This document shows, one piece after another, positions 35,393 through 58,179 of a stretch of DNA of 64,000 nt (its first letter is position 1; each line of letters opens with the position of its first letter). The stretch is taken from positions 320,001-384,000 of the forward strand of contig CAVTHO010000006.1 in NCBI GenBank assembly GCA_963734545.1. The letters are read 5' to 3'. The position numbers and the translations under genes were made by a program. The stretch is from an uncultured Spirochaetota bacterium. Its GTDB lineage: Bacteria > Spirochaetota > Spirochaetia > SZUA-6 > Fen-1364. The notes beneath the pieces are model-generated. The model saw nothing but the letters and a program-made list of their open reading frames with translations, was not told the origin of the DNA and ran no database searches.

Positions 35393-36133
35393 TCAGCGCG
35401 GCTGCATGTGACCGCACGCCGGGCAGTCCGGGTCGCGCGGTATCTCCAGCTCTTCGAAGCTCATCTGAAGACCGTCGAACGCCAGGAGCGTCCCCTTGAG
35501 CAGCCTCCCGAGGCCGGCGAGCAGCTTGATTGCCTCGACGGCCTGGAGCAGGCCGATCACGCCCGGGGTCACGCCGATGACCGGCGTGATCCCGGAAGTC
35601 ACGCGTCCGCGATACAGGCACATCAGGCACGGTGTCACACCGGGCACGATCGTCATCACCTGGCCAAAGAAGCCGAGGGCCGCGCCGTGCACAATGGGCA
35701 CACCCAGGGCGATTGCCGCCCGGTTGACCGCATACCGGGTCGGAAGATTGTCCAGGGCATCGATGATTGCATCGCATCCCTTGATGAGCGCAGGCAGGCT
35801 TCCCTCATCCATTCGCACGAAATGAGGCTCGACCTTGACGTCCCTGTTCAGCTCCCCGATCCTCCGCGCCATTGCCTCGACCTTGGGGCTGCCGATGTCG
35901 CGATCGGAATACACGACCTGCCGGTTCAGGTTGCTGAGCTCGACCACTCCCTCATCGACGATGCGCAACCGCCCCACTCCTGCCGCTGCGAGATACACGG
36001 ACACGCTGCATCCCAGGCCGCCCGCGCCCGCGACGAGCACGGCGGCTCTCGCGAGCCTCTCCTGTTGCGGCTCCCCGAAGCCGTCCATGCGCAGTTGCCG
36101 CGCGTATCGTTCCTTCTCAGATTCGCTCAGCAT
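35393..36133 (-). CDS. moeB: MoeB/ThiF family adenylyltransferase
   Basis: RYARQ, GAGGLG, ELSNLNRQ, CLMC and CPAC Zn motifs. Confidence 0.85.
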   Translation of the reverse strand: MLSESEKERYARQLRMDGFGEPQQERLARAAVLVAGAGGLGCSVSVYLAAAGVGRLRIVDEGVVELSNLNRQVVYSDRDIGSPKVEAMARRIGELNRDVKVEPHFVRMDEGSLPALIKGCDAIIDALDNLPTRYAVNRAAIALGVPIVHGAALGFFGQVMTIVPGVTPCLMCLYRGRVTSGITPVIGVTPGVIGLLQAVEAIKLLAGLGRLLKGTLLAFDGLQMSFEELEIPRDPDCPACGHMQPR

Positions 36134-36190
36134 GACGCACCATCCTCGCATCACTGGCGCGGCCCGCGCAAGGTCTGGTAGAATGGGACC

Positions 36191-36428
36191 ATGGCCGTCA
36201 GCAGCGTCGAGGTGCGTCTCTACGCTTCCCTCCGGAAGTGGCGTCCGAGCTCCCTCAGGTTCGTATGAGCTCGCTGGCAGCATGACCGTGAGTGACCTGG
36301 TGAGGCAGAACGGCATCCCGGAAAGCGAGATCGCGATCGTTTTCATCAACGGGAAACGCGGACAGCTTGCATCGACGCTCGCCACCGGGGACACGGTGAG
36401 CCTGTTCCCGCTCATCGGGGGCGGATAG
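36191..36428 (+). CDS. moaD: MoaD/ThiS sulfur carrier (frameshifted)
   Basis: VEVRLYASLRK...IVFING...GDTVSLFPLIGGG with C-terminal GG. Confidence 0.78.
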
Positions 36429-36432: not shown

Positions 36433-37557
36433 ATGAAACCGCCGTTCGACGCCGGGAAGCTCGACCGGCTTATGGAGGAAGCCGGCCTCTCCCTGGTGCT
36501 TGCGCATACCCGGCACAACGTGCGGTACCTGTCGGGCGGGTACTACTACCATTTCCACGCCAACTTCACGCGCATGGGAAGAAGCCAGTACCTCCCATTC
36601 GTCGGGATCCCGAGGGGACGGATACAGGAGGCGTTCTATGTGGCTCGGGATGAGGAGCGCGGCCAGCTCGAGACCGAATCTCCCTGGTTTCCCACGCGCA
36701 TCGAGGCGGTCAGAGGCACGGTGACCGCGGCCGAAGGCGCCGTAAAAGGCCTGCGGCAGCTCGGCCTGACCCTGGCCGGATCGGAGTGGAGACCCCGTTC
36801 CTTCCCGCGGACGCCTGGCTCGCCCTGCGCGCCGAGCTCCCTCGGGTGGAGCTCGTCGATGCCACTCCCCTCCTGAACGAGCTGCGGGCCGTGAAGAGCG
36901 AAGCGGAGCTCGAGACAATGAGAAAGGCGTATGCCGGCGTCGCCGAGTCGATACAGGCCGCCTTTCGGAGCAGCGGTCCGGGCGACACGACACGGAAGAT
37001 CGCGCAGCGCGTCGAGCGGGAGATCGCCTCGCGGGACCTCTCCTTCCTGTTCGCGTTCGTGTGCGCCGGCCCGAGCTTCCTGCGTGCCCCGTCATCTGCC
37101 ACGTGGGATTCCGGACAGATCCTGCACATCGACGCGGGCGGCTCGCTGCAGGACTATATCGGCGATATCTGCCGCATGGGCTGCGCCGGGAAACCCGCGC
37201 CGCTGGCGAACGAGCTGTACGAGGCATGCATCGCCGTGCAGAACGAATGTGCGCGGCATGATCCGGGCAGGGGTGCCCTGTCGGGACGTCCTGGCGGCCG
37301 GAGAGCGCGCGTCGCGCGCATACGGCTTCTCCCGGTATGCGCGATTCGTCGTGCATTCGATCGGCATGGTTTCCTATGAGCAGCCCGAGTTCACTCCCGA
37401 CAATCCGCGGCCGCTGGAAGAGGGCATGGTGCTGTCGGTCGAGACTGATTTCCTCCACCCCGAGGTCGGGCACGTGAAGATAGAGGATGCCGTCGTGGTC
37501 CACGAATCAGGCTGCGAAGGCCTCGGGGATATCGGCAGGGAGTGGCAGATTGTCTGA
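36433..37557 (+). CDS. M24 (Xaa-Pro peptidase/creatinase fold) hydrolase (frameshifted)
   Basis: NVRYLSG, LRAVKSEAELE, HIDAGG..YIGDICR, HSIG, LSVETD, VKIED. Confidence 0.8.
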
Positions 37558-37624
37558 CTGGGCGCTGCCAGGCAACCCATAACTCCAACCAGGCCCCGAA
37601 AATAGCCGCTATTTCCTTTTTTTC

Positions 37625-37688
37625 TTGACAGCGCTCTTCTAGCGGCCATATAATGCCGTAATATTACCGATATATCGCAAATATATCA
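37625..37688 (+). promoter_or_regulatory. Consensus sigma70 promoter with adjacent palindromic operator candidates
   Basis: TTGACA-18 bp-TATAAT; palindromes GTAATATTAC (37658-67) and CGATATATCG (37668-77). Confidence 0.75.
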
Positions 37689-37713
37689 GAGCGTATGGAG
37701 GGTTCGCCAGACG

Positions 37714-38403
37714 ATGAGTGAACAGGGCATTGCTCAGGTCGAGGCTCCAGCAAACAATAAAAAGAGCAGGATCTACGAGCTTTTGAAGGAGCGCATCGTC
37801 AAGAATGAGCTGAAGCCCCAGGAATACCTGAACGAGCAGGTTATCGCCAGGGATCTTGGCGTCAGCAAGACTCCGGTCAGGGAGGCGCTCCAGAAACTGG
37901 AGCATGAGCGGCTGGTCGTCATCATCCCGAACAAGGGGACATTCGTCGCCAACGTCAGCATCGACAGGATCCGCGAAGTCTTCGAGATCAGGGAGATCCT
38001 CGAATGCGCCGCTGCGCGACTGGCGGCAAAGCTCCCCGCGAGGGAGCAGTTCGTTTCGATCCTCGACAGCCACCCCTCGTTCACGATCAGTGACGGAGCA
38101 GAGCTGCGCGAGCAGTTCCTGTCCGGATACCAGATTCACACCCGCATCGTCGAGGCCGCGGAGAACAGTTACCTCACGGATTACTACGAGAACATCCTCG
38201 CGCACATCGTCCAGGTGCGCGTCTTTTTCATCCGCCGGTTTGGGATGAGGCGCCTGCATGAGACCGTCGAAGAGCACCGCGTGATACTCAAGGCGATCGT
38301 CGATGGTGACGCGGAGAAGGCGGAGACAGCGATGCGCGACCATCTCAAGCGGTCCCTGGTGAACATCAACCAGCTCATGCTGGGAAGCGGGGGAGAGATA
38401 TGA
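37714..38403 (+). CDS. GntR (FCD) transcriptional regulator
   Basis: LGVSKTPVREAL HTH; EEHRVILKAI...AMRDHL. Confidence 0.92.
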   Translation: MSEQGIAQVEAPANNKKSRIYELLKERIVKNELKPQEYLNEQVIARDLGVSKTPVREALQKLEHERLVVIIPNKGTFVANVSIDRIREVFEIREILECAAARLAAKLPAREQFVSILDSHPSFTISDGAELREQFLSGYQIHTRIVEAAENSYLTDYYENILAHIVQVRVFFIRRFGMRRLHETVEEHRVILKAIVDGDAEKAETAMRDHLKRSLVNINQLMLGSGGEI

Positions 38404-39071
38404 TCCACGTTCGCAGGGAGACGCGCCGGCCCGACGCCGCGATCATCGAGGCTTTCCGCGAGCTGGCTGTTGCGACCGTCTATGAGGCTTCCGGTCGGAA
38501 AGGCTACATCGGGAACGCGGTCAGGCCGATCGCACCGGGAACCCGTATCTGCGGCCCGGCCTACACGGTCCAGTGCGCGCCGGGGGACAACCTGATGCTG
38601 CACAAGGCCCTGCAGCGCGCCGCGCCGGGTGACGTCCTTGTCGCGGCCGCCGGCGGGGCGTACGAGTTCGGCTATTGGGGAGCCCTGATGGCGTCCGCGG
38701 CGGTCGCGCGGAAGCTCGGCGGCCTGGCCATCGACGCATGCGTGCGCGACTCGGCCGAGATCCGGGACATGGGCTTCCCCTTGTTCTGCCGGGGGTTCTG
38801 CATCCGCGGGACCACGAAGGCCGTCCTGGGACTGATCAACTACCCGCTGAACTTCAGCCAGGCCACGATCTTCCCGGGCGATCTCGTGCTCGGTGACGAT
38901 GACGGCATGGTGGTCGTGCGGCTGGATGACTGCAAGGAGGTGCTGGAGAGCTCCTTGAAGAGGGTCAGCGCCGAGGAATCGAAGGTGAAGCAGCTGAAGG
39001 CCGGCGTATCGAGCGTCGAGCTGAACAGCCTCGACAAGGTGTTCGAGTCTCTCGGGCTCGGCGAGGAGTAA
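38400..39071 (+). CDS. ligK: 4-carboxy-4-hydroxy-2-oxoadipate/HMG aldolase (LigK-type RraA family)
   Basis: VATVYEA, PGDNLMLH, GYWG, VRD, GDDDG and the LigK-like C-terminal extension (223 aa). Confidence 0.75.
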   Translation: MIHVRRETRRPDAAIIEAFRELAVATVYEASGRKGYIGNAVRPIAPGTRICGPAYTVQCAPGDNLMLHKALQRAAPGDVLVAAAGGAYEFGYWGALMASAAVARKLGGLAIDACVRDSAEIRDMGFPLFCRGFCIRGTTKAVLGLINYPLNFSQATIFPGDLVLGDDDGMVVVRLDDCKEVLESSLKRVSAEESKVKQLKAGVSSVELNSLDKVFESLGLGEE

Positions 39072-39078
39072 GAACCGC

Positions 39079-40126
39079 ATGAGGGTGAGCGAGAAAGCGC
39101 TCCTGGACTCCACGCAGGAGATACTCGTCCGGCTGGGCGAGGATCAGGCGAACGCAGTGCTCGCTGCCGCGGCCCTCGTCGGTGCCGATATGCGGGGCGT
39201 CACCACGCACGGCGTGAACCTGCTGCGCCTGGTGTCACAGCGGGTGGAGGCGGGCATGCTCGCTCTTCCCACGCGCATTGAAACGCTGAAGGAGGATGCC
39301 GCCACCGCGATCCTGGACGGGAACAATGGGCTCGGGCAGGTTGCGGCATGCCGGGGCATCGGCCCTGAGCGCGGCGAAGGCGAAGCAGGCCGGCCTGGGC
39401 ATGGTGGTGGTGCGCAACACCAACAACCTGGGAGCCCTCGGCTACTACACCGCGCAGGCCGCTTCCCGAGACGGGGTCGTCGCAATCCTCATGACAAACG
39501 GGAACCCCTCCGTGGCGCCCTTCGGCAGCGCGGATCCGTTTTTCGGGACCAACCCTGTGTCCATCGCCATTCCCTCGGCAGGAGGCCGCCCCCTCGTGCT
39601 GGACATGTCGTCGAGCGTCGTGGCCCGGGGAAAGATCCGCGTCGCCGCCACCAGCGGTGAGAACATTCCATTGGGGTGGGCCTGCGACGAGAACGGCGAG
39701 CCCACGACAGATCCGAAGCGCGCGCTGAAAGGCTCCCTGCTCCCACTCGGCGGACCCAAGGGCTCGGGTCTCGCCATGATGATCGACATCCTCTCCGGGG
39801 TGCTCTCCGGCTCTTCGTATGGCCGCGGGCTGAAGAGCTTCCATGAGCTGGACGGGCCGACCGGCGTGGGGACCTGCGTCATCGCCATCGATATCGGCCG
39901 GTTCGTGGATCCGGGCGTCTTTGCGGAGACGATCGGAGCATACGTGCAGGACATCAAGGGACTGAGAAGGCGGTCCGGAATCGAAGAGATCCTTGTGCCC
40001 GGCGAGGTGGAGAGCCTCAAGGAAGAGGAGAACCGGCGCCTGGGGATCGAAGTTCCCGAACCGGTCGCGAAGAGCATGAACGAAATCCTCGCGAAGCTCG
40101 GCGCACGAGCGAGGATCGGCTCATGA
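39079..40126 (+). CDS. Ldh_2 family 2-hydroxyacid oxidoreductase (frameshift near 39350)
   Basis: ADMRGVTTHG, DGNNGLGQ, FGTNP, LDMSSS, GGPKGSGL, PGEVE. Confidence 0.87.
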
Positions 40127-41858
40127 ACACGGTCATCCGCGTGAACACGCGCAGCCGGCAAGGTCACTTCGCACCCCGTCACCGCCGAGGAGACGAGGTG
40201 GGGCGGAAGGTCCTTCATCGCGCACCTGCTCCTGCGCGAGGTGCCGCCGACCTGCGAGCCCACCGGCCGGCACAACAAGCTCATCGTGGCTTCAGGGCTG
40301 CTCGCGGACACCGGCGTTACAACCACCGGACAGCTTTCCATTGGAGGGAAGAGCCCGCTCACCGGCGGAGTAAAAGAGTGCAACACCGGCGGCGCCGCGG
40401 GAAAGCGGCTTGCCCGGCTGGGCATCCGCGCCGTGGTGATCGAGGATACCCCGGCGGCACCGGCCACGGACGTCGTGGTGATCAGCGCGCGCGGATCGCA
40501 CCTGGAGCCCTTCCCCGAGCTGAAGGGGAAGCTCGTCGACGAGACGGTGGCGGCGCTGCGCGCGAAGTACGGCCGGACCGTCGGCATCCTCTGTATCGGC
40601 CCTGCCGGTGAGCTGATGATGTACGGCGCAGGGATCGCCTCTCCCGACAGTGACAGCGTGCAGATCAGGTACGCCGGCCGCGGCGGCCTGGGCGCGTTGA
40701 TGGGATCCAAAGGGGTCAAGGCCATCGTCGTCGATGACACGGACTCCACCTATCGGGCGGAGCCGCACGATCCCGAGCTGCTCACGCGCACATCCAGGTG
40801 GATGAATGACGCGCTCAAGGCTGATCCGAAAACCGAGAACCGTCACCTCTACGGCACGGATGCGATCCTCGCCCTGGCAAACGCCTCTGGCCTGCTGCCG
40901 ACGAGGAACTTCTCCAGCGGGAGCTTCGAAAAGGCGGACGATATCGCGGGCGAGCGGCTTCGCGCGGAGATCCTGGCGCGCGGCGGGGAGGGCAGGGCAG
41001 GCACCTCGTGCGTGCCTGGCTGCGTGATCCAGTGCTGCAACGTCTTTCCCGACAAGAGCGGACGGAAGACCGTCGCATCCATCCAGTACGAGAATATCTC
41101 CCTGCTCGGCTCCAACTGCGGCATCGGGAGCCTCGACGACATCGCCGAGATGAACCATCTCTGCAACCAGGTCGGTGTGGACGCCATCGAGACGGGCGCG
41201 GCAATCGGCGTGGCCATGGAAGCGGGGATCCTCCCGTTCGGGGACGCCGAGGCGGCCAAGGACCTGATCCGCCAGATCGGCAGCGGCACGTATCTCGGCC
41301 GCATTCTCGGGCACGGCGCGCTGCTCGCCGGCCGCGTGCTCGGCGTGCGCCGGATTCCCGTGATCAAGGGACAGGCCATTCCCGGCTACGATCCGCGGGC
41401 GCTCAAGGGAAACGGCGTCACCTACGTCACCTCCCCCATGGGCGCCGACCACACGGCGGGCAACGCGTTCGAGACGCTGAAGACCCTGGACCCGCTGAAG
41501 CCGGCCGGGCAGGTGGCGGCCTCCCGGAGACTTCAGGTCCGGGCAGCCTTGCTGGACACGCCTCGGGCTCTGTCTTTTCGTGCGGCCGCCGTTCGTCAAG
41601 AAGCCCGAGATGTTCGCCAACCTGCTCAACGGCCGGTATGGCTGGGACATGACGGTGCACGACGTGCTCTCCCTCGCCCACGAGGTGATCATGACCGAGC
41701 GTGAGTTCAACCGGCGCGCGGGCGCATCCGAGGAGTTCCACCCGATGCCGGAGTTCATGCAGGACGAGCCGTTGCCGCCGAACGACGTCGTCTTCGATGT
41801 GCCCATGGCGGAGATGCAGGCCCTGTGGGAAGGATACGCGCCCACGGACGAGTTCTAG
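40123..41858 (+). CDS. Aldehyde:ferredoxin oxidoreductase (W/Mo AOR family; frameshifted)
   Basis: GGKSPLTGGVKE, IGPAGE, AGRGGLGALMGSKGVKAI, CVPGCVIQC, YDPR, GADH. Confidence 0.88.
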
Positions 41859-41876
41859 GAGCGCGAAGGAGAAGGC

Positions 41877-42630
41877 ATGGAGCTTGAGGGGAACGTGGCG
41901 ATCGTGACGGGCGCGGGCAACGGGATTGGAGAGGCAATCGCCCGGAAGCTGTTCGCCGAGGGCGCCCGGGTGGCGCTGTGGGACATGAACTTCGAATCAG
42001 TCCAGAAGCTGGCAGCGCTGCTGGATCCGAAGGGAGACAAGGCGGCAGCCTTCAAGGTGAACGTGACCGTGGAAGCGGAAGTTCAGACCGGCGTGCGGCG
42101 AGACGGTAGAGCGGTTCGGCCGCATCGACATCCTGGTCAACAACGCCGGCATCTCCCGGCACAAGCACCATCGAGGAGATGAGCGTCGAGCTTTTCGAGC
42201 AGCGTGATCGCGGTGAACCTGACCGGGCCCTTCATCTGCTGCAAGGCCGTGGCGCCCGTGATGAAGAAGCAGAAGGGCGGGAAGATCGTCAACATCGCGT
42301 CACTCGGCGAGGCAGGACCGGGCGGCCCGGGCGTGGGCGTGAACTATGCGGCCTCGAAGGCGGGGCTGATCGGCATGACAAAGTGCCTGGCGCGCGAAGC
42401 TGGGCCGGAGCAACATCTACGTGAACGCCATCTGCCCCGGCCCCATCCTCACCGAGCAGACGAAGCAGTATTCGAAGGAAGTGTTCGCGTCGTGGAACGC
42501 GGGACGCGCGGTGCCGAAGGACGGGCTGCCCGAGGACGTGGCGGACGCGGTGGTCTACCTTTCCTCGCGGAGGGCGGACTGGGTGACAGGGGTCAGCCTC
42601 GACGTGAACGGCGGCATCTACATCAACTAG
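41877..42630 (+). CDS. Short-chain dehydrogenase/reductase (frameshifted)
   Basis: TGAGNGIG, NNAG, YAASK, VNAICPG. Confidence 0.88.
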
Positions 42631-42642
42631 GACGGAGGAGCC

Positions 42643-43010
42643 ATGGCGAAGGTGAAGGTGGTCGACATCAAGAACGTGACCGGGGAGCGGAAGGGCCCCC
42701 GCCGCGCACCTCCTGGATCCTGGTCTCGGAGAAGACGGTGGGGTCGAAGAACCTCGCCATGGGCGTGAACGAGACCGACCCGGGCAGCATGGTGCCGGAG
42801 CACAAGCACGACACCGAGGAGGAGGTGATGTTCTTCATCTCCGGCAAGGGGAAGTTCGTCACCGAGGACGAGGAGATCCCCCTCGGCCCGGGCATCTGCG
42901 TCTACAACCCTCCCGGGGGGAAGCACAAGATCGTGAACACCGGCACCGAGGTGCTGAAGTTCGTGTGGATCTACGCGCCGCAGCTGCCGTCGCACCGCGT
43001 GCAGCAGTGA
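42643..43010 (+). CDS. Cupin domain protein (frameshift near 42700)
   Basis: PEHKHDTEEEVMFFISGKG...PPGGKHKIVNTG. Confidence 0.85.
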
Positions 43011-43035
43011 CAGCGGGAAAAAGGAGAGTGAGGTC

Positions 43036-44001
43036 ATGAGCGAGTGGAAGTTCCCGCCGGGCGGCGGGCACATGGAGAAGCCTTCGAAGATCTACTACCA
43101 GACGATGACGAAGAAGGACGTCGAGGAGCGCCTGAAGGTGAACGACATTCTCCTCATCCCCTTCGCCTCCACCGAGAACCACGGCGACGCGCAGCCCTAC
43201 GGCGAGGACGGCTTCATCGTCACCCGGATGTGCGAGATGATCGCGCAGAAGACCGGCTGCACCGTGGCCGAGCCGCTCTGGTACGCATCGCACCCCTTCG
43301 CCCACCTCGGGCAGTCGGGCACCGTCCCCATCCCCGACGACCTGACCTCCGCGATAGTGCGCTCGATCGTCTCGGGCTACTGGAACGCGGGGTTCCGCAA
43401 GCAGATCCTGATGAGCAGCCACGGGCAGGAGTACATCATCCCATCCGCCATCCAGGAGTGGGCCAAGAAGTACCAGGTGCCCGCCGTGATCATCTTCCTG
43501 GACGTGATGAAGATCATGGGCGACGCGCTGAAGGACAAGGCGCACGGCGGCCCCTTCGAGACCCCCTTCCGCCACGGCGACGAGGCGGAGAACTCCATCT
43601 GCCTGGCGCTCTTCCCGGAGTTCATCCAGATGGAGAACTGCGTCGACACCAAGACATGGGGCTTCCTGCCCGAGGGCCACATCGACAAGGGCGGGGACAT
43701 CTACAACTACCCCATCCCCGGCCAGAGCCACGTCGGCGGCGGCGGTGTCGAGTTCGCCGTGTACCCGGAAGGCGTGCTGGGCAAGCCGTCGCTCGCCAAG
43801 GCCGAGAAGGCCTACGAGGCCATCGAGAACTACCTGAACTACGTGGTGAAGCTGCACAACGACATCCGGGCGAAGTTCCCTCCGGGGGTGCTTCCGGAGG
43901 CCAAGTACATGACCCAGAGGAGCGAGGAGGAGATCGATCTCCTGCTCAAGGGGCCGGACCGGGGAGGCAGGCACATCTACACGGTCGCCTGGCCGTCCTG
44001 A
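43036..44001 (+). CDS. iolN: Creatininase-family cyclic diketone hydrolase, IolN-like (3-dehydro-scyllo-inosose hydrolase)
   Basis: WKFPPGGGHMEKP..IYYQ..STENHG..GED, SSHGQE, PFRHGDE resemble Thermotoga IolN. Confidence 0.75.
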   Translation: MSEWKFPPGGGHMEKPSKIYYQTMTKKDVEERLKVNDILLIPFASTENHGDAQPYGEDGFIVTRMCEMIAQKTGCTVAEPLWYASHPFAHLGQSGTVPIPDDLTSAIVRSIVSGYWNAGFRKQILMSSHGQEYIIPSAIQEWAKKYQVPAVIIFLDVMKIMGDALKDKAHGGPFETPFRHGDEAENSICLALFPEFIQMENCVDTKTWGFLPEGHIDKGGDIYNYPIPGQSHVGGGGVEFAVYPEGVLGKPSLAKAEKAYEAIENYLNYVVKLHNDIRAKFPPGVLPEAKYMTQRSEEEIDLLLKGPDRGGRHIYTVAWPS

Positions 44002-44123
44002 GCCGCGCCCGGGAGCCGGGAAGGAGGTGGCGAGGTGAAGAAAGTCTTTCCACGTGCCGGAGAGGCAGTTCTGATTATCGGCGCGTAGCGCCGAGCTCGA
44101 AGAGTTTCCGGAAGGAGAACGAA

Positions 44124-45152
44124 ATGAGAAAGATCCTGTTGTTCGTGCTCGTGGCTCTCATGGCGGCGCCCCTGGCAATGGCCCAGCAAAAGTGTACGAG
44201 CTCAAGCTGGCGCATGCCGACTCGACCGACATCAGCGTGTCGCGAAAACACGCCCAGGCGTTGCCTTCGCGGACCTCGTCAACACGAGGAGCGGCGGGAG
44301 AATCAGCGTCAAGGTGTACGGCGGCGGGGCCCTCGGCGCCGAACGCGAGTACGTCGAGTCCATCAAGGCCGGGCACGGTGGAAGCGGGAATCGCCTCGGG
44401 CGTCATTGCCAACTTCTTCCCCTCGGCGATGGTCACCGACATCCCGTTCCTGTTCCCCTCCGGCGAGATAGCCTGGAAGGTCCTGGACGGTCCCTTCGGA
44501 GACAGGCTGCGCGCCGCGTTCCTGAAGGAGACGGGGATGCGCTGCCTGACGTTCGCCGAGGTCGGGTTCCGCAACTTCACGAACAATGTCAGGCCCATCA
44601 GGACGCCCGCGGACATGAAGGGCCTGAAGATCCGGGTGCAGGAGACGCCCCTTTACATCACCTTGATCAAGGCCCTCGGGGCGAGCCCGACGCCCATCGC
44701 CTTCACCGAGCTGTACACCTCGCTGCAGACAAAGGTCGTGGACGGTGAAGAGAACCCGATCGCCGACGATCCTCATGTCGAAGTTCGCCGAGGTGCAGAA
44801 GTACTGCACCCTGGACGGCCACAACTACGGCGTGGACTACTTCGTGATCAACGAGAAGTTCTACCAGAGCCTCCCGCCGGATCTGCAGTACATCGTGCTC
44901 TCAAGCGCTCGGATCAGCGCTGCGGTGGGCCGCGGCGTCCAGCAGCTCGTGGCCGCGGAGGGAGTCCGGGCGCTCCAGGATGCGGGCATGGAAGTCTATG
45001 TACCAACCACGGCGGAGCTTGAGATGTTCAAGCAGGCCACCCAGCAGCCGGTCATCGATTGGCTGAAGACAAAGATCGACCCGAAGCTCATCGCGGAAAT
45101 GCTGCAGGTGGTCAAGGACACCGTTGCGCAGCAGAACAGGGACCTGAAGTAG
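44124..45152 (+). CDS. dctP: TRAP transporter substrate-binding protein (frameshifted)
   Basis: Signal peptide; GFRNFT, DMKGLKIRV, ELYTSLQTKVVDGEENP. Confidence 0.88.
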
Positions 45153-45166
45153 AGAGGACAGAAAAT

Positions 45167-45194
45167 GGAAGCGGGACCGCAAGGTCCCGCTTCC
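45167..45194 (+). other. GCAA-tetraloop hairpin after dctP (mRNA stabiliser/attenuator)
   Basis: GGAAGCGGGACC-GCAA-GGTCCCGCTTCC with no U-tract. Confidence 0.6.
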
Positions 45195-45216
45195 TCCTGA
45201 AGGGAGGAACGGCGGA

Positions 45217-45702
45217 ATGAAGCTCATCGACAGGATCATGCGCGGGATGGAGAATGTCATCATGTGGGCGGCGTACGTCCTGCTTGTCCTGATGGTGATC
45301 AACACGGCCGGCGGCGTGTTCTTCCGATACGTTCTTCACAACGCCATCCCGTGGACGGAAGAGCTGGGACGCTACATGATGATCTACGTCGGCTTCTTCG
45401 GCTGCATCCTGGCCATGGGTACAGACTCCCACGTGGGAGTCCAAATGTTCACCGCTCTGTTTCGCCCGGCAGTCAAGCGCGTCTTTCACATCATCGCCCG
45501 GCTCGTGGTGGCCGTCTTCCTCATCGTCATCCTCATGAAGTGCGGAGAGCAGCTGAGCGCGCTGCGAATCCAGAGGTCGAGCGCCATGGAGATTCCCATG
45601 GTTGTTCCTTATTTTGCCGTGACCTTCGGCATGGCCCTGATGCTCCTCGAGGACCTCGTGCACCTGCTGCGCCTCTTCATCAACAAGGAAGGAACACCAT
45701 GA
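45217..45702 (+). CDS. dctQ: TRAP transporter small permease
   Basis: VFFRYV..WTEELGRY..SHVGV; 4 TM helices. Confidence 0.9.
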   Translation: MKLIDRIMRGMENVIMWAAYVLLVLMVINTAGGVFFRYVLHNAIPWTEELGRYMMIYVGFFGCILAMGTDSHVGVQMFTALFRPAVKRVFHIIARLVVAVFLIVILMKCGEQLSALRIQRSSAMEIPMVVPYFAVTFGMALMLLEDLVHLLRLFINKEGTP

Positions 45703-46983
45703 CACTGTGGCTCGCGATTGGAGCGTTCGTCCTCTGCCTGCTCATCGGCGTGCCCATCGCCTACAGTCTGGGAACAGCGAGTGTCATCTACCTGGTGTTG
45801 AAGGGAGTATCACTCGGGCTGATTGCGCAGCGCCTGTTCACCGGCCTGGACAGCTTTGCCTTCATGGCCATTCCCTTCTTCATCCTGGCAGGAGAGCTGA
45901 TGAACAGCTCCGGCATCACCAAGCGACTGGTCAACTTCGCCTCGCTGTTCGTCGGCCGGCTGAAGGGCGGGCTCGGTCATGTGACCATCCTCACCTCGAT
46001 GCTCTTCGGCGGGGTCACCGGTTCGGCCATCGCGGATGCCTCCGCGGTCGGGGCAATGATGATCCCCGGCATGAAGCAGGAAGGCTTTGACGAGGATTTC
46101 TCCGCGGGCCTGGTGGCCTCGGCCTCGGTCATGGGCCCCATCATACCGCCGAGCATCCCCTTCGTGGTCTTCGCCCTGCTCAGCAGCACGTCGGTGGCAG
46201 CTCTTTTCCTTGGGGGCATCGTCCCGGGCGTCATGATCGCGCTCGGGCTCATGATCGTCACCTACTACATCTCCGGCAAAAGGAAGTACCCGCGCGCGAC
46301 CAAGTGGCCTACGCTCAAGCAGGCCGGCCGTGGCCATCCTGAACGGCATTGTGCCTCTCCTGATGCCGCTCATCATCCTCGGCGGCATCCTTGGCGGCAT
46401 CTTCACCGCGACCGAGGCGTCTGCAGTTGCCGTCGTCTACGCCATGGTGATCGGTTTCATCGTGTACAGGAACCTCGACATGAAGTCGTTCCTCGCTGCC
46501 CTCCTCACCACGGCAAAGACAACGGGCGTGGTCTTTCTGGTCATCGCCTGCTCGAACGTCTTCAACTGGATGCTGGTCGTGGAGCAGGCCCCGCAGGCCA
46601 TGGCGGCTTTCGTGGGGGGCATCATCCATAACAAGGCGCTCCTGCTCCTGGCCATCAATATCGTGCTGCTCATCGTCGGGACCTTCATGGAAGGCACCGC
46701 GGCAATGATCATCCTGGTCCCGATCCTCTTGAAGATCACCGCCGTCTACGGCATTCACCCCGTGTTCCTCGGCGTGGTCGTCGTGCTCAACCTCATGATC
46801 GGGCTGCTCACGCCGCCGGTGGGCTTGTGCCTCTACGTCGTCTGCGGCATGGCGAAGCTCTCCCTGGAGAGAGTGGTCAGGGCGGTCGTCCCGTTCCTGA
46901 TCGCGGAGATCATCGTCTTGTTTCTCATTACATACATAGAGCCGCTGTCCATGTTCCTGCCCAGGGCGTTCGGGTACTTGTAG
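45699..46983 (+). CDS. dctM: TRAP transporter large permease (frameshift near 46325)
   Basis: AIPFFILAGELM, GSAIADA, IIPPSIP, FTATEA, LTPPVG. Confidence 0.92.
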
Positions 46984-47006
46984 CAGCGACCGGAAGGAGC
47001 ACCGCA

Positions 47007-48039
47007 GTGAAAGCGATTGTGAAATACGAGGACAAGCCCGGCGCCGTGAAGGTGATGGATCGCCCGAAGCCCCGCGTCGGGGCCCGTGATGTGCTCATTG
47101 CCATCAAGGCCACCGGGATCTGCTACACGGACATGTCCATCATCAAGGGCGAGTACAAGGGCCGCAAGCCGGTCCCCATCCCGGTGATCCTCGGACACGA
47201 GGGATCCGGGACCGTGGCGGAGACAGGCCGGGAGGTGAGCGGCTACCGGGCCGGCGAGAGAGTGGCCTTCGAGGCGCTGAACGGCTGCGGCCACTGCCTC
47301 AACTGCAGGAACGGCTTCAAGAACATGTGCACGGACTGGACGCATGTCGGCATCACCTGCGACGGAACTTTTGCCGAGTACCTCGCGCTCCCCGACGTCA
47401 TGGTGCACAAGCTGCCTGACAGCGTGTCCTTCGCGGATGCCGCGGTGCTCGAGCCCCTCAGCCTTGTCGTGCGCTCGCTGGAGCACGTTCAACCCGTCCC
47501 GGGGGAGACGGCGGTGGTCATCGGCCCCGGGTCGGTCGGGCTTCTCCACCTCCAGGCACTGAAGGCTTCAGGGGTGGACAAGGTCATCGTCATCGGGATC
47601 GAAAAGGACAGGCAGAGGTTCGAGATTGCCAGAGTCCCTCGGCGCGGACGTGGTCGTGTACAGCGACAAGGAGGATCCTGTGAAGGCGGTGATGGACGCG
47701 ACAGGCGGCCTGGGGGCTGACGTCGTGATCGAGACCGCGAACCACCCCGTGGTGTGGGATTACCTTCTCGACATCGTGGCAGCCCGTGGACGGATATCGA
47801 CCTTCGGCCTGTATCCCGAGGCGAAGATCAAGCCGCTTGCGCTGCTGCGCAAGGGCGCGACGATCTACGGGGATGTCGCGCTCCTGTCCAGGCACTTCGT
47901 GCGCGCCATCAAGTGGCTGGAGACGAAGAAGGTCTCCGGGGAGAAGCTCATCACGAAGCGCTTTGCATTGGACCAGATGGAGGAGGCGTTCAAGGTCTTC
48001 CGTGCCGGGGAGACGATCAAGGTCCTCTTCGAGTTGTAG
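47007..48039 (+). CDS. Zn-dependent medium-chain dehydrogenase (frameshift near 47630)
   Basis: GICYTD, GHEG, CGHCLNC..C, EPL, GPGSVG. Confidence 0.88.
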
Positions 48040-48066
48040 GTCGGCTGCAAACCGCGCGGAGCAATA

Positions 48067-49440
48067 ATGAAGAAGATCAGGTCGATCAATCCCTTCTCCC
48101 GGGAAGTGAACGGCGAATTCGATTCACTGTCAGCGCCGCGGGCCGCGAGAGAGATCGAGGCGTCGCGGACGGCGTTCCGCGCCTGGCGGGCCCTGAGCGC
48201 GCGCGAGCGGGGGAAGTGCATAATCCGCCTGGGCGAGGTCCTGATGGCGGGACAGCGAGGCTACGCGGAAACGATCACCCGGGAGATGGGCAAGCCCATC
48301 AGGCAGTCGCTCCAGGAAATCGAGCGGTGCGCGAATATCGCGGCATATTTCGGGAAGAACGCCGAGGAGCTGACCCGGGACGAGACGGTGTCCACGGCTT
48401 TCAAGAAAAGCTACGTGTCCTTCGAGCCCCTGGGCGTGATACTTGCGATCATGCCCTGGAACTTCCCGGTGATACAGGCGCTCAGGTTTGCCATTCCCAC
48501 CATGACGGCGGGGAATGTCGTCGCGCTGAAACCCGCTTCGAATGTGCCCCTGTGTGGGATGGCCATCGAGGGCATGTTCGCCGAGGCCGGATTCCCGCGC
48601 GGCGCTTTCAAGACGCTTCTCATGGACTCCGCCACCGCGCTGGGCCTCATACGGGACGACCTGGTGGACGGCGTCTCGCTCACCGGAAGCATCAGCGCGG
48701 GCTCGGCAGTCGGCGCCGCGGCCGGGGCGGGCATCAAGACGGCGGTGCTGGAGCTGGGCGGATCCGATCCCTTCCTTGTCCTGGACGACGTCAATGTGGA
48801 CGCGGTCGCTTCCGCCGCCGTCCAGGCGCGGTTCGTCAACGCCGGCCAGAGCTGCGTTGCGGCCAAGCGTTTCATCGTCATGGAAAAGGTTGTCGGGGAG
48901 TTCTCCGAGCGCTTCGTCCACCACCTGCAGGCAATGAAGGTGGGCGATCCCATGGATGAGTCGACGGACATCGGGCCGCTCGCGAGGCCCGAATCACGCG
49001 AGGAGCTCGAACGCCAGGTCGAGGATGCGCGCGCAAAAGGGGGAACCGTGATACTCGGTCCCCTCCCGCCTGCCGGCAGGGCCTTCTTCCGTCCGGCCGT
49101 CATCCTGAACGCGACCCCGGACATGGCGGTTGCGCGCGAGGAGACATTCGGTCCCATTGCCCCGATTTTCGCCGTCAGGGACGAAGAGGAGATGGTCGCC
49201 ATGGCCAACTCGACCAAGTTCGGGCTGGGAGCCACGATCTGGAGCGGGGACATTGCCAGGGCCGAGCAGCTTGCCGCGAGAATCGACTCGGGATTCGTCG
49301 GCATCAATCAACCGGTGAAATCTGATCCCCGTCTGCCCTTCGGAGGCACAAAGAGCTCAGGTATCGGGCGGGAGCTCTCGCACTATGGGGTGAGGCAGTT
49401 CACAAACATAAAGACCGTCGTCGTCCAGAATCCGAGGTAG
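48067..49440 (+). CDS. NAD(P)-dependent aldehyde dehydrogenase (SSADH/Sad-like)
   Basis: MPWNFP, LELGGSD, NAGQSC, EETFGP, PFGG. Confidence 0.9.
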   Translation: MKKIRSINPFSREVNGEFDSLSAPRAAREIEASRTAFRAWRALSARERGKCIIRLGEVLMAGQRGYAETITREMGKPIRQSLQEIERCANIAAYFGKNAEELTRDETVSTAFKKSYVSFEPLGVILAIMPWNFPVIQALRFAIPTMTAGNVVALKPASNVPLCGMAIEGMFAEAGFPRGAFKTLLMDSATALGLIRDDLVDGVSLTGSISAGSAVGAAAGAGIKTAVLELGGSDPFLVLDDVNVDAVASAAVQARFVNAGQSCVAAKRFIVMEKVVGEFSERFVHHLQAMKVGDPMDESTDIGPLARPESREELERQVEDARAKGGTVILGPLPPAGRAFFRPAVILNATPDMAVAREETFGPIAPIFAVRDEEEMVAMANSTKFGLGATIWSGDIARAEQLAARIDSGFVGINQPVKSDPRLPFGGTKSSGIGRELSHYGVRQFTNIKTVVVQNPR

Positions 49441-49500
49441 GCCCCCCTACACCAACAGGCGGTTTCGTGCCATCCTGTGACCGCACAGAGAGGCAGAGGA

Positions 49501-49954
49501 GTGGCGAAGCACATCGCGGTCATTCACGGCCCGAACCTGAACATGCTGGGCAAACGCGAAGTCGGCATCTACGGCGGAAAGTCGATGGAGGACATCAACG
49601 CCGATGTCGCCGCGGAAGCCGGCAGGCTCGGCGTGACCGTGGAGTTCTATCAGAACAACGGCGAAGGTGAGCTGGTCAGCTTCATCCAGCAGTGCCGGGG
49701 CAGGGTCGAACGGGATCCTGTTGAACGCCGGCGCCTACACCCACTACTCGGTGGCCCTGCGGGACGCCATCTCCGCGGCGCAGGTCCCCACGGTGGAGGC
49801 GCACATCTCGAACATCTACAAGAGGGAGAAGTTCCGCCACACGTCGGTGATCGCGCCGGTGTGCATCGGTCAGATCTGCGGTTTCGGCCCGTACAGCTAC
49901 ATCCTGGGGCTTCGCGCGCTGATCGAGGACCGGCTCGACCCCTGGCTGGCGTGA
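49501..49954 (+). CDS. aroQ: Type II 3-dehydroquinate dehydratase, copy 1 (frameshift near 49705)
   Basis: [40 protein letters not shown]. Confidence 0.9.
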
Positions 49955-50411
49955 GGAAGATACTATTGAAGAAGAAGAGCTTCCTGGTCATATCGGGACC
50001 CAACCTGAACCTCCTGGGGACGCGCAAGACCTCGATCTACGGTGAGGGCTCGCTGGAGGACATCCACAAGGGCCTGAAGCTCGCGCGCCGAGGAGCTGAA
50101 CGTGCAGGTGGACTGCCGGCAGTTCAACAGCGAGGGGGCGATCATCGACTCCCTGCAGGAGGCGCCCGGGCATTTCGACGGGGTGATCATCAACGCCGGG
50201 GCCCTCGCGCACTACAGCTACGCGCTTGCGCAGCGCCATCGGGTCCACGCTCCTTCCGTGCGTGGAGGTGTTCATCTCCAACGTCCACGCGCGCGAGGAG
50301 TTCCGGCACACCTCCGTGATCGCGCCGGTCTGCGTGGGGGTCATCGGGGGATTCGGCAAGAAGAGCTACCTGCTGGCCCTGGAAGCATTGGCAAACCTGA
50401 GTGAAGCCTGA
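49951..50411 (+). CDS. aroQ: Type II dehydroquinase paralog, copy 2, with catalytic His replaced (frameshifted)
   Basis: [35 protein letters not shown]. Confidence 0.8.
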
Positions 50412-50426
50412 GGTGAGGCAGCGGGC

Positions 50427-51258
50427 ATGAGCATACTGTGGGGCAAGCAGGTCTCGGAGCTGTCCGGCGCGGCACAGGCGCGCGCGCAGGGCTTCGATTT
50501 CGTGCAGCCGCTGGGAACCCTCGTGGCTGACATGAGCGACCAGGAGTTCCGCGCGGAGAAGGCCCGGATCGCTGACAGCGGCATCCCCCTTGCCGTCTTC
50601 GCAGTTCCTCTTCCTGCGGAGGTGCGTGTGACGGAGCGCGGCTTCAACCTGTATGCGTGGACCGAGCATCTGAAAAAGGCGGTGCCCCGGATGGCCGAGC
50701 TGGGCTGCAGGAAGCTGCTCTGGAGCAACGGCCGGGCACGAGTCCTCCCCGAGGAGGGCAATGTGGCCGGCCTGAAGGCAGCAGGTGGCCCAGTTCCTGT
50801 TCCTGCTCTGCGATGTGGCCGCGAACGCCGGGATCTCCGTTCTCGTCGAGCCGCTGGATCCGCGGCGCACGAACTTCCTGAACTCCATGAAGGAAATCGG
50901 CGAGTTCCTCCACCGGGTGGGAAAGGAGAACCTGGCGTCCATGATCAGCCTGAGGGAGCTGGATGCCATCGGCCTGCCGATCTCCCGGCTCGGCGAGTTC
51001 CGACACCTGATCCGGTACGTGCAGATGGAAAACCCCCTGTCTCGGGAGGGAGCCCGCGCCTGCCCGCGTCGGTCGGACGGCTTCGACTATCGTCCATTCC
51101 TGCGCGCGCTGCAGGATATCGGATACGGCGCCGAGATCGGGCTTCCTGTCGACGCGGATGCGGATACGCTCACGTACTGCCGGGAGCTGGCGGAACAGAC
51201 GTCAGCCGGGTTCCATCGCCGCGACGCCTCTCTTGAGCGTCCCCGCTCCCCCGTGTAG
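50427..51258 (+). CDS. Sugar-phosphate isomerase/epimerase-like TIM-barrel protein (frameshift near 50780)
   Basis: GFDFV, LVEPL...NFLNS, ALQDIGY typical of the AP_endonuc_2 fold; metal ligands look partly degenerate. Confidence 0.7.
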
Positions 51259-51267: not shown

Positions 51268-52561
51268 ATGGAAAATCCCCCCGCAGCACAGCGCGCTGAA
51301 CTTGCAGAGGGTGGGCGCCTCGTCACGCCTCTGGCAGCCAGACGCATCACCCGGGTCCTCTTTGCGGCTCAATGCCTGGCCTCGGCTGCTTTCATCGCCA
51401 CATCAACTGTATCCGCCATCGCGGGAATGGCGCTGAGCGGCCAGAGGAGCCTGGCAGGGGTGCCTGCCGCGGCGTCCACTCTTGCGGGATCGGGCGCTGC
51501 CTTCCTCTGGGGTCTGCTCATGGATCGAATGGGCAGGCGGCCGGCCCTTGCGCTGGGCCTGCTCTGCGGCGCAGTGGGATCTGCGGTGTGCATCTGGGGG
51601 ATCACGGCAGGCTCCTTCCTGGTACTTGTCGGCGGCATGATGCTCATAGGAGTGGCGAACGCGGCAGTCGCCTTGAGTCGATTCGTGGCAGCGGAAGTGA
51701 ACATGCCCGAGCGACGAGGCCGGGCCGTGTCCACCGTCGTGCTGGGTGGCACAGTGGGGGCCATCGGAGGTCCCCTTCTGGTGACGCCCGCTGGCCACAT
51801 CGCCATGCAGGCCGGCACAGGCGATCTTGCCGGCGCCTTCGGTGCCGCGGTGATTCTGCTCCTGGTGGCAGGCGCGGTGATAGCCGCGGCGCTCCGTCCC
51901 GAGCCGCTGACACTTGCAGCGGGCGGCGTGAAACAGGCGGGGGCGGCCGGCGAACGCGCCCAGTCCGTCCAGCGGCGCGCCATTTCCGAGATCTTCCGTC
52001 TTCCGGGTGCCGCCGCCGCCGTTGCCGCCATGGTGTTCAGCCAGGTGGTGATGGTGGGCCTCATGGTGATCACTTCCCTCTATATGAAGGACATGCACCA
52101 CGGCCTGGGGGACATCTCCGTCGTGTTCTCCGCGCACACCATCGGGATGTATGCATTCTCCCTGATCTCCGGGCAGGCTCATCGACCGGTGGGGCAGGCG
52201 CCAGGTGATTCTCCTGGGCGCCTCTATACTCCTGGTGGCGTGCCTCACCGCGCCCCTGACAGGAGATACGATTCCGCTTTCCATCTCCCTCCTCCTGCTT
52301 GGCCTGGGCTGGAACTTCTGCTTCGTGGGAGGATCCACTCTGCTCGCAGACCACTTGAGCCCGGCGGAGCGAGGGCGCACGCAAGGCTTCAACGATCTGC
52401 TGGTGGGGCTGGCGGCTGCCGTGGGCAGCCTGGGCAGCGGCCTCGTCTCGGCGAGATTCGGCTACGCCGGCGTCGGGCTGGCGGGAGCCGTGCTCGCGGT
52501 GGCGCCGTTCGTGTTTGTGGCGCGTTGGGTGAGGCAGGGGGCCCGGGGTTCGGCAGCGTGA
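51268..52561 (+). CDS. MFS transporter (frameshift near 52177)
   Basis: LMDRMGRR motif A, RGRAVS, ~12 TM helices. Confidence 0.88.
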
Positions 52562-52623
52562 CAGGGGCGGGGAGCCGCCCGTCCGCATTCGCCTCCCTCG
52601 CGGATCTCACCCATGTTTAGAGC

Positions 52624-57294: not shown

Positions 57295-57297
57295 AAT

Positions 57298-58155: not shown

Positions 58156-58179
58156 AAGAAACGTCCTCCGCGCCGCCGC

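Follow-up and report, generated by a model that had tools for sequence, protein, structure and literature searches.

How might a bacterium that lives without oxygen open the carbon ring of an acid such as quinate? This question is raised by a cluster of 16 genes at 36433-51258 on the + strand of a 64-kb stretch of DNA from an uncultured Spirochaetota bacterium (Fen-1364; GCA_963734545.1, CAVTHO010000006.1:320,001-384,000). This whole stretch is called the window below, and the genome is called G000 (89% complete). The cluster combines an IolN-type ring hydrolase and an RraA/LigK-type aldolase with several oxidoreductases, a tripartite ATP-independent periplasmic (TRAP) transporter and two type II dehydroquinase genes. 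From the families present, we read it as a catabolic operon of strict anaerobes for a ring hydroxy-carboxylic acid. The acid is most likely quinate, and shikimate may enter through an accessory module. We put the probability of this reading at roughly 55%. A literature search found no paper on the cluster or on a hydrolytic quinate route.

Domains were called with Pfam on the open frames of the window, and gene extents were set by tblastn with intact orthologues from the same-genus genome G007 (84% complete) and from locus L074. Every family listed in a first-pass annotation of this DNA was found on the + strand by these methods. That annotation had described the cluster as led by its GntR gene. 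The gene is present, but the conserved unit begins upstream of it with an M24 gene, in the window as in G007. The members, from the M24 gene to a gene for a triosephosphate isomerase (TIM) barrel, are as follows.

36433-37557, + strand: M24/creatinase-prolidase-like gene; the G007 orthologue aligns by tblastn in three pieces (frames 1/3/1; 68-73% identity)
37714-38403, + strand: GntR-FCD regulator, intact; Pfam GntR 65 bits, FCD 75.6 bits
38400-39071, + strand: RraA-like class II aldolase of the 4-hydroxy-4-methyl-2-oxoglutarate/4-carboxy-4-hydroxy-2-oxoadipate (HMG/CHA; LigK/GalC) type, intact; Pfam RraA-like 144.6 bits
39079-40126, + strand: Ldh_2 2-hydroxyacid dehydrogenase; Pfam Ldh_2 over two open reading frames (ORFs), profile 2-91 and 77-332
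40123-41858, + strand: tungsten-type aldehyde:ferredoxin oxidoreductase (AOR); Pfam AFOR_N and AFOR_C, truncated as assembled
41877-42630, + strand: short-chain dehydrogenase/reductase (SDR); Pfam adh_short pieces on two ORFs, the G007 orthologue being intact at 248 aa
about 42640-43010, + strand: small metal-binding monocupin; Pfam Cupin_2 55.8 bits
43036-44001, + strand: IolN, creatininase-family C-C hydrolase of subfamily A, intact; NCBIfam NF041098 491.1 bits (cut-off 245)
about 44100-45152, + strand: TRAP solute-binding protein DctP; Pfam DctP over two ORFs, 59% and 53% identity to the L074 orthologue
45217-45702, + strand: TRAP small membrane subunit DctQ, intact; Pfam DctQ 97.4 bits
45699-46983, + strand: TRAP large membrane subunit DctM; Pfam DctM split, profile 2-200 and 209-411
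46953-48039, + strand: Zn-dependent medium-chain dehydrogenase (Zn-ADH); Pfam ADH_N only, as assembled
48067-49440, + strand: NAD(P)-aldehyde dehydrogenase (ALDH), intact; Pfam Aldedh 442 bits
49477-49954, + strand: AroQ1, canonical type II dehydroquinase; tblastn 76% and 81% identity over two pieces
49960-50411, + strand: AroQ2, type II dehydroquinase paralogue; Pfam DHquinase_II, with Phe for His101 and Ser for Asp88
50427-51258, + strand: TIM-a, xylose-isomerase-like TIM barrel; Pfam AP_endonuc_2 over two ORFs

Comparison of these proteins and their orthologues with named families gives the following picture. The M24 gene of G007 has Peptidase_M24 and Creatinase_N domains. Its Ldh_2 is intact (356 aa) and scores best in NCBIfam on sulfolactate dehydrogenase (259.6 bits, under the cut-off of 500); the nearest PDB entries are 2x06 and 1v9n. 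The Zn-ADH of G007 (361 aa) reaches 214 bits on Tdh (cut-off 458), and the best NCBIfam model for the ALDH is succinate-semialdehyde dehydrogenase (464 bits, under the cut-off of 730). The AOR aligns with that of G007 over two pieces at 81% and 77% identity. Its paired AFOR_N and AFOR_C domains point to a tungsten enzyme, and its nearest PDB entries are 9mqx (213.9 bits) and 1aor (205.1 bits). The cupin has only weak PDB matches, to TM1287 (1o4t) and cupin-type sugar isomerases, which give no hint of a substrate. The three TRAP families DctP, DctQ and DctM occur together at about 44100-46983, with DctP and DctM frame-broken as assembled. The DctP belongs to an orthologue group that is 47-71% identical to the L074 protein (window 59%) and accompanies the cluster across phyla in most loci. 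Solved TRAP binding proteins match it only distantly (about 200 bits) and also give no substrate hint.

The cluster is a real, widely conserved anaerobic operon. IolN homologues number 1096 at E<=1e-10. In named genomes, 468 IolN relatives were found, and the 80 nearest were used with at most 10 kb of flank each. One of them (L075) duplicates the G007 locus and was left out, so that 79 other loci were compared. Being made up of the nearest relatives of the window IolN, this set is biased. The gene order of the cluster recurs in the 79 loci, far beyond chance, and the order RraA-Ldh_2-AOR-SDR-cupin-IolN is kept across them. Conservation of the single genes was counted in the 41 loci whose sequence extends 7 kb or more to each side of IolN (the full-flank loci). 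The RraA-type aldolase is present in all 41, Ldh_2 and the cupin in 39 each, and AOR in 32. SDR and GntR follow with 29 each, DctQ with 28 and Zn-ADH with 27. The remaining genes are less frequent: AroQ2 in 14, AroQ1 in 13, M24 in 10 and ALDH in none. All six core partners stand beside IolN in 17 full-flank loci, five in 13, four in eight, three in two and two in one. The record titles name Spirochaetota, Syntrophales/Thermodesulfobacteriota, NC10/Methylomirabilota, Atribacterota, Chloroflexota, Clostridia and Halanaerobiales, which makes at least six phylum labels of anaerobes. The carriers include the isolates Fervidicola ferrireducens (L085) and Thermovorax subterraneus (L081) and metagenome-assembled genomes (MAGs). 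AroQ genes, whose enzymes are specific for dehydroquinate and thus speak for quinate, occur in 20-21 of the 79 loci, under four phylum labels.

The first-pass annotation had proposed a quinate route and named the co-clustering of iolN with ligK, AOR/Ldh_2 and aroQ in other genomes as a check on it. These counts bear the linkage out, with AroQ in 13-14 of the 41 full-flank loci. The route itself fits this co-clustering and the stoichiometry given below. Two of its parts fit less well. An orthologue of the ALDH was found in G007 only and in none of the 79 other loci, and the pair of dehydrogenases varies between loci: SDR and Zn-ADH in the window, two Zn-ADHs in Fervidicola, and a GFO-type gene in 17 loci.

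In the route that we propose, the TRAP transporter would take up the acid. Two NAD(P)-dependent dehydrogenases, the SDR and the Zn-ADH, would oxidise C3 and C5 and convert quinate through 3-dehydroquinate to 3,5-didehydroquinate, a 2-hydroxy-1,3-diketone. The IolN-type hydrolase would then open the ring with water. The cupin may convert the resulting terminal hydroxyketone to a hydroxyaldehyde, which the tungsten AOR would oxidise with ferredoxin. Ldh_2 would oxidise the 2-hydroxy acid to the 2-oxo acid, which is CHA, and the RraA/LigK-type aldolase would cleave CHA to pyruvate and oxaloacetate. AroQ1, AroQ2 and the TIM barrel, with an AroE-type enzyme in some genomes, would link shikimate or dehydroshikimate (or epimers of these) to 3-dehydroquinate. 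The sum would be quinate + 2 H2O -> pyruvate + oxaloacetate + 8 [H], which balances exactly. It takes four two-electron oxidations, a hydrolysis, an isomerisation and an aldol cleavage, which would occupy exactly the seven conserved enzymes.

The two ends of the route agree with the predicted families. TRAP transporters and GntR-FCD regulators are typical of carboxylates, and their presence here points to a carboxylate substrate. The aldolase scores 200.7 bits on the NCBIfam model for CHA aldolase (PRK09262; cut-off 179). It matches PDB 3noj over its full length (168 bits), with Arg123-Asp124 aligned, which we take to be the catalytic Arg and the metal-binding Asp. The aldolases LigK and GalC of protocatechuate 4,5-cleavage and gallate breakdown share this RraA fold and the same proposed end in pyruvate and oxaloacetate. 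In contrast to those pathways, the cluster has no LigI, LigJ or LigU-type genes (Pfam), and CHA would here come from a ring-opened aliphatic acid instead of an aromatic ring. LigB-type dioxygenases (PF02900) have no match in G000 or G007, and no ring dioxygenase is linked to the cluster, as the first-pass annotation had also observed.

In a survey of 41 genomes of the same order, the NCBIfam IolN model was passed in 16, and the proteins fall into three subfamilies. Subfamily A (491 bits in G000, 522 bits in G007) sits in the cluster described here. Subfamily B, found twice in G006 and in G015, scores about 521-524 bits and is 52-55% identical to A. Its context is a CUT2 sugar ABC transporter, a Zn-ADH and an IolO-like TIM barrel (252 bits); one such locus (L122, G006:C7:163001-183000) holds the sugar ABC transporter, IolN and the IolO-like gene along with Amidohydro_2 and DUF6282 genes. 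Subfamily C scores about 295-316 bits and is 35-37% identical to A. In the same-genus genome G017 it stands with LacI, IolM (500.4 bits, cut-off 450), IolG (406 bits, cut-off 355) and a sugar-binding protein, the IolN-like protein itself scoring 305 bits. This locus (L117, G017:C2:391501-411500), in the order LacI-IolM-IolN-IolG, is by its gene families a Thermotoga-type inositol locus. Among the three subfamilies, only A sits with TRAP, GntR-FCD, aldolase and AOR genes. One genome (G022) holds A and C and another (G015) holds B and C, which argues that the subfamilies are paralogues with different jobs. All three pass NF041098, which therefore cannot tell their substrates apart. Thirteen positions, including K26, Q93, G229, K250 and Q294, are invariant in A alone. 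The residues that we equate with the metal and catalytic sites of creatininase are invariant in A, B and C.

The closest described system is the inositol pathway of Thermotoga maritima, reportedly worked out by Rodionova and colleagues in 2013. Its enzymes IolG, IolM, IolN and IolO are assigned to the TM0411-TM0416 region (in part after PMC5931981). The proposed route is similar in that two dehydrogenations would yield a 2-hydroxy-1,3-diketone whose ring IolN would open without oxygen. The rest of the cluster differs. No protein here reaches IolM (G007 Zn-ADH 204.3 bits against 450, other cluster Zn-ADHs 191-219). The same holds for IolG (no GFO_IDH_MocA gene in the window cluster; 142.3 bits against 355 for the GFO-type protein of locus L064) and for IolO (32.9 bits against 300 for TIM-a of G007; 62-74 bits for TIM-b, a distinct barrel of some cores). 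TRAP and GntR-FCD genes take the place of a sugar ABC transporter and LacI. The downstream genes are AOR, Ldh_2 and a CHA-type aldolase here, and an epimerase and uronate enzymes there. The IolN of the cluster also stands apart as a subfamily, sharing 35-55% identity with the two subfamilies that related genomes have in inositol contexts.

The accessory module consists of AroQ1, AroQ2 and TIM-a. Roughly one locus in four has this triad, and an AroE-type shikimate dehydrogenase accompanies it in some. In L064 an AroE-type gene (TIGR00507 204.7 bits, cut-off 200.2) lies directly upstream of the AroQ pair, and orthologues occur in L043, L047 and L066. G000 has a type I dehydroquinase on another contig (C9:242227-242859), beside an aroE-like gene, and a chorismate synthase gene as well. 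Biosynthesis is thus served elsewhere, and the AroQ genes of the cluster are extra copies. The first-pass annotation had counted two type II dehydroquinases, and this holds for AroQ1 only. Orthologues of AroQ1 keep N12, R19, Y24, H81, D88, E99, H101, S103 and R112, and that of G007 scores 203 bits on TIGR01088 (cut-off 169.85). AroQ2 of the window reads VEVFISN at the catalytic-His position, which is therefore Phe, and has Ser for Asp88. Among 14 AroQ2-type sequences, His101 is replaced by Phe in 12, by Thr in one and by Gln in one, and Ser88 is present in all 14; the His is kept in all 20 canonical rows. In Mycobacterium tuberculosis numbering, His101 is the general acid, acting with Glu99. 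Despite the missing His, AroQ2 still passes the type II dehydroquinase scores of Pfam and NCBIfam. By these residues AroQ2 is not a canonical dehydratase, and it is a fixed partner of AroQ1. As AroQ2 has lost the acid catalyst but keeps the residues for enolisation, it may carry out some reaction that is not a dehydration, or serve as a partner without catalysis of its own.

Of 300 genomes taken from across the phylum, one alone (G120) has AroQ2-type matches (74-76% identical). The other 43 matching genomes have single matches at 45-56% identity, which are read as canonical by similarity only. In G120, AroQ1 and AroQ2 are fused in one open frame at two loci (L125:4342-5262, - strand). One of these adjoins an IolN cluster, and the other stands alone with a TIM gene, an Fe-S-domain aldo-keto reductase and a flavoprotein. 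This natural fusion argues for a joint function. TIM-a always follows AroQ2 and is distinct from TIM-b. Its profile matches ketose 3-epimerases, TM0416 and IolI in the PDB at E values of about 1e-5 and the dehydratase AsbF (3dx5) at 6.6e-4. The AlphaFold model (predicted local distance difference test score, pLDDT, 87.2) has ketose 3-epimerases, YcjR and TM0416 as its top Foldseek matches, with no dehydratase among the matches listed. Profile and model together suggest that TIM-a is an epimerase that works beside a keto group; a dehydroshikimate dehydratase is the less likely reading. Two earlier statements are affected by this. The first-pass annotation had recognised no dehydroshikimate dehydratase, for which TIM-a is at most a less likely candidate, and the TIM protein, put forward as a possible isomerase of the route, turns out to be present as part of the AroQ module and not of the core. 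PMC10054779 predicts salvage of quinate to chorismate. Such salvage is a possible side role of AroE and AroQ here and would itself imply that dehydroquinate is handled. In passages of PMC11572103, quinic acid appears solely as a product of chlorogenate esterases.

Several observations weigh against the assignment to quinate. All steps of the route are read from family membership. No dehydrogenase of the cluster belongs to a known quinate dehydrogenase family, and Pfam finds no quinate/shikimate dehydrogenase of the AroE/YdiB type in the window cluster. The aldolase misses the strict ligK model TIGR02798 (186 bits against 304.5). To our knowledge, the closest solved TRAP binding proteins are not quinate binders. 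AOR is missing from nine and SDR from 12 of the 41 full-flank loci, and AroQ from about two thirds of them. Subfamily A scores as high as B on a model built for an inositol-derived diketone, and sequence alone cannot separate the two substrates. Finally, a Clostridia MAG (L097:702-11821) couples a subfamily-A-like IolN (526 bits) with galactarate/altronate dehydratase, dihydrodipicolinate synthase (DHDPS)-family and glycerate-kinase-like genes. A hydroxyacid dehydrogenase and DctQM are also present before the contig ends. This is a sugar-acid context for a subfamily-A-like IolN.

Such observations would suit a different hydroxy or keto acid that offers IolN a beta-diketo intermediate, with AroQ as a lineage-limited side entry. 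Such an acid might be a diketo acid from ascorbate, a derivative of an aldaric or uronic acid, or gallate as its keto tautomer (3,5-didehydroshikimate) once this is hydrated. The patchy distribution of AroQ and the L097 locus both favour this explanation, and CHA is also the end of aerobic gallate breakdown. The operon further recalls the 2,3-diketo-L-gulonate cluster of E. coli (yiaK-S/yiaMNO), where an Ldh_2-family dehydrogenase, a TRAP transporter and a TIM-barrel epimerase likewise share one operon. The resemblance does not extend far: DctQ matches YiaM weakly (33.5 bits), and the Ldh_2 of G007 scores 139 bits on 3-dehydro-L-gulonate 2-dehydrogenase against 260 on sulfolactate dehydrogenase. 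The kinase, decarboxylase and class II epimerase/aldolase of the yia route are not present here, and that route has nothing that corresponds to IolN, AOR or the CHA-type aldolase. No sugar-acid kinase or dehydratase is conserved in the annotated loci. A polyol ring would explain the two conserved dehydrogenases upstream of IolN better than an already oxidised acid would, and gallate would need none. The C7 balance of quinate fits all seven enzymes. We therefore regard another acid as rather unlikely. A neutral cyclitol is less likely still. In that case myo- or scyllo-inositol, or a related compound, would be oxidised twice and opened by IolN to 5-dehydro-L-gluconate, and after isomerisation AOR and Ldh_2 would give a 2-oxo-aldarate for the aldolase to split. 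The IolN of the window does pass the equivalog model for 3-dehydro-scyllo-inosose hydrolase, and the Zn-ADHs lie near IolM among the named NCBIfam models (190-220 bits). A GFO/IDH/MocA gene (at least 40% identical to that of L064) is present in 17 loci, and TIM-b matches IolO weakly. On the other hand, no IolG, IolM or IolO reaches its cut-off, and relatives in the genus and the order have distinct inositol-type loci, where the equivalogs occur with sugar ABC transporters and LacI. The carboxylate-type transporter and regulator do not suit an inositol. The known substrates of this aldolase family are 3-deoxy 4-hydroxy-2-oxo acids, and a dehydratase is absent. The linkage of AroQ and AroE would have no role in inositol breakdown.

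An aromatic route is the least credible of the substrate alternatives, and we consider it very improbable. AroQ would form dehydroshikimate, the TIM barrel would be a divergent dehydroshikimate dehydratase, and protocatechuate would be a true intermediate or product. The cluster does share features with classical quinate and shikimate catabolism (qui, qsu, qut), namely the extra type II dehydroquinase, the AroE-type neighbour in some loci and the TIM-barrel gene that follows, and the dehydroquinase-then-TIM order mirrors the qui and qsu clusters. Dehydratases of the AsbF type belong to the Pfam family of TIM-a, and G000 has one unlinked Dioxygenase_C open frame (68.8 bits; G000:C4:337925-338284). 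In contrast to the classical clusters, there is no linked ring-cleavage dioxygenase and no clearly recognisable dehydratase, and a His-less AroQ paralogue is a fixed partner. TIM-a is closer to epimerases than to AsbF. The triad is accessory and the IolN-aldolase core is what is conserved. The carriers are anaerobes, with an oxygen-sensitive tungsten AOR in the operon. Quinate or shikimate remains the best fit.

Is the operon functional in this organism? As assembled, 11 of its 16 genes are not open, and at least 15 frame breaks are present. GntR, RraA, IolN, DctQ and ALDH are intact, as is a transporter gene just beyond the cluster. The number of breaks is two in M24, one in Ldh_2, two in AOR, at least two in SDR, one in the cupin, at least one in DctP, two in AroQ2, and one each in DctM, Zn-ADH, AroQ1 and TIM-a. 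Their positions, all on the + strand, are as follows.

about 36771-36777 and about 37238-37246, + strand: M24; tblastn frames 1/3/1
about 39360-39386, + strand: Ldh_2; tblastn frames 1 then 2
about 41560, with a probable second break within the first 10 or so codons, + strand: AOR; frames 2 then 3, the ATG at 40123 opening another frame
42180-42182 (in-frame stop) and about 42400-42440 (frame change), + strand: SDR; tblastn frames 3 then 1
near 42691-42696, + strand: cupin; N-terminal 20 or so codons out of frame, with no in-frame start codon in 42600-42710
about 44709-44764, + strand: DctP; tblastn frames 2 then 3
about 46291-46295, + strand: DctM; tblastn frames 3 then 1
about 47455-47630, + strand: Zn-ADH; tblastn frames 3 then 1
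about 49710-49715, + strand: AroQ1; tblastn frames 1 then 2
about 50079-50084 and about 50226, + strand: AroQ2
about 50776, + strand: TIM-a; tblastn frames 3 then 1

These breaks are very probably assembly indels and not the marks of pseudogenes. The frameshift load of the genome could not be gauged with a crude gene caller based on GC content at third codon positions (GC3), which was replaced by a tblastn comparison. For this, 364 long open frames from 420 kb of G007 were used as queries against the whole of G000. They gave 213 orthologue-like matches, and a few genes are counted twice because some queries are antisense shadow ORFs. Outside the cluster, 86 frame changes were found in 82,613 aligned residues (0.35 per kb), affecting 60 of 205 genes; by the identical method, the region itself has 0.38 per kb. 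The gene for RpoC is among those broken (93% identity). Comparable breaks across the genome, rpoC included, favour assembly errors over gene decay. Short-read contigs from four runs, which come from related wetland populations and are 90-99% alike (209-900 bases among those listed), agree with this in part. They have one base fewer at 42691/42696, 44762, 49706 and 50224/50226 and also on both sides of the SDR stop (42166, 42203), so that the differences fall at or near five break sites. None of these contigs reaches across a whole gene, and contigs of other organisms dominate the SDR and iolN bins. Stretches without contigs count neither way, and 12 indel rows are listed with 44 further rows beyond them, which limits this support to five of the at least 15 sites.

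It is highly improbable that the cluster is a decaying array in this genome, whatever its role elsewhere. The density of damage, at least 15 breaks in 11 genes over 14.8 kb, speaks for decay. It is joined by the intact rpoB, which shows no break in 3.5 kb and indicates that errors are uneven. A fuller count gives about one break per kb in the cluster, which may exceed the genome mean. No frame break corresponds to four of the 12 listed indel rows (42305, 42308, 42326, 44374). Long homopolymer runs, a simple mark of error, are not evident at the break sites. Decay is opposed by the similar rate in 205 other genes and by the base missing from related populations. The only nonsense codon besides the frame changes is the SDR stop, which lies inside a short out-of-register stretch. 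There is also no excess divergence: identity to G007 is 50-92% per aligned piece in broken cluster genes and 67-75% in intact ones. With assembly error as the most likely cause, the organism probably has a working operon. At about 0.35 frame changes per kb in conserved genes of G000, any gene call in this assembly needs care. In G007, LivM, LivG and a methyl-accepting chemotaxis protein (MCP) gene are likewise split. A large LuxR-type regulator gene of the window (AAA_16, TPR, GerE; 32421-35373, + strand) runs over two overlapping frames, and a further assembly indel is the probable cause.

The iolN gene has a history of its own. The window protein is 93-97% identical (about 91-92% in DNA) to those of 15 loci titled NC10, Syntrophaceae, Deltaproteobacteria and Spirochaetales, whereas the neighbouring RraA is only 56-65% identical to the same loci. 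In G007, of the same genus, IolN is 68% and RraA 75% identical to the window. Compared with L035, iolN is 90% identical at third codon positions. The block of high identity spans 42956/43020 to 44001 only, and its flanks are 68-76% identical. A 95% identical piece of iolN lies at a contig end in G022. The depth of short-read contigs is 87-155 over iolN and mostly below 30 over the other genes, with the SDR bin alone higher. We favour a real exchange of the gene across phyla, since some carriers are short-read assemblies from other projects. A possible alternative is consensus contamination in this assembly.

Neighbouring genes add some context. Two genes follow the cluster directly.

51268-52620, + strand: major facilitator superfamily (MFS) transporter, intact; Pfam MFS_1 68.7 bits, no NCBIfam match
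52624-54435, - strand: methyl-accepting chemotaxis protein, convergent with the cluster; Pfam MCPsignal 102 bits

The MFS gene adjoins the cluster in the window and stands beside it in none of the 80 loci. In G007, the cluster itself contains an MCP gene, which is placed between ALDH and AroQ1 and encodes a 4HB_MCP_1 sensor (L009:15313-17143). The chemotaxis receptors at both clusters hint at taxis towards the substrate. A ThiF/MoeB-like gene (35393-36415, - strand) is directly upstream of the window cluster, and a ThiS/MoaD-like gene lies inside that of L064 (L064:14878-15225). Both may serve the pterin cofactor of AOR. In Fervidicola ferrireducens, carboxyltransferase, OAD-gamma, biotin-carrier and OAD-beta genes come after the cluster (L085:13334-16909). 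They could encode a sodium-pumping decarboxylase that conserves energy from a dicarboxylic product. In an Atribacteria MAG, genes for chorismate mutase, DAHP synthase, EPSP synthase and chorismate synthase directly follow the cluster (L054:16723-20724), which is weakly suggestive of a further link to shikimate-pathway metabolites. Elsewhere in the window, type I restriction-modification genes occupy 4986-13476 (- strand). Their helicase/restriction subunit has a C-terminal Peptidase_S24, and an IrrE-like M78 peptidase and HsdM are close by. Toxin-antitoxin genes lie at 55562-59859, namely HipA (55562-56869, - strand), PIN (57724-58155) and a Phd/YefM and PIN pair (59177-59859).

Few soluble plant acids are as abundant as quinate and shikimate, which occur free and as chlorogenic acids and reach anoxic soils, peat, sediments, rumens and guts. 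As far as the literature search shows, no genes have so far been attached to their non-aromatic consumption by strict anaerobes. Organisms with such a metabolism, the 'hydroaromatic' fermenters, were reportedly described by Brune and Schink in 1992. Ilyobacter insuetus is a fermenter of quinate and shikimate. We suggest tentatively, at somewhat less than even odds, that the operon is their missing pathway. It would be a widespread route without oxygen or an aromatic intermediate, in which IolN opens quinate or shikimate on the way to CHA and a tungsten AOR is a fixed component, distributed over at least six phylum labels in wetlands, sediments and digesters. A His-less AroQ paralogue and an iolN allele exchanged almost unchanged between phyla would accompany it. 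These two features, the paralogue and the near-identical iolN across phylum labels, are separate curiosities that can be tested. If the proposal is true, it would also carry a warning: proteins of at least three subfamilies, which differ in their gene contexts, are being given the database name '3-dehydro-scyllo-inosose hydrolase'. The cluster would provide a set of marker genes for the flux of quinate and shikimate carbon in wetlands, and the tungsten AOR would gain a physiological job. IolN-type hydrolytic C-C cleavage would then extend from inositols to carboxylated cyclitols.

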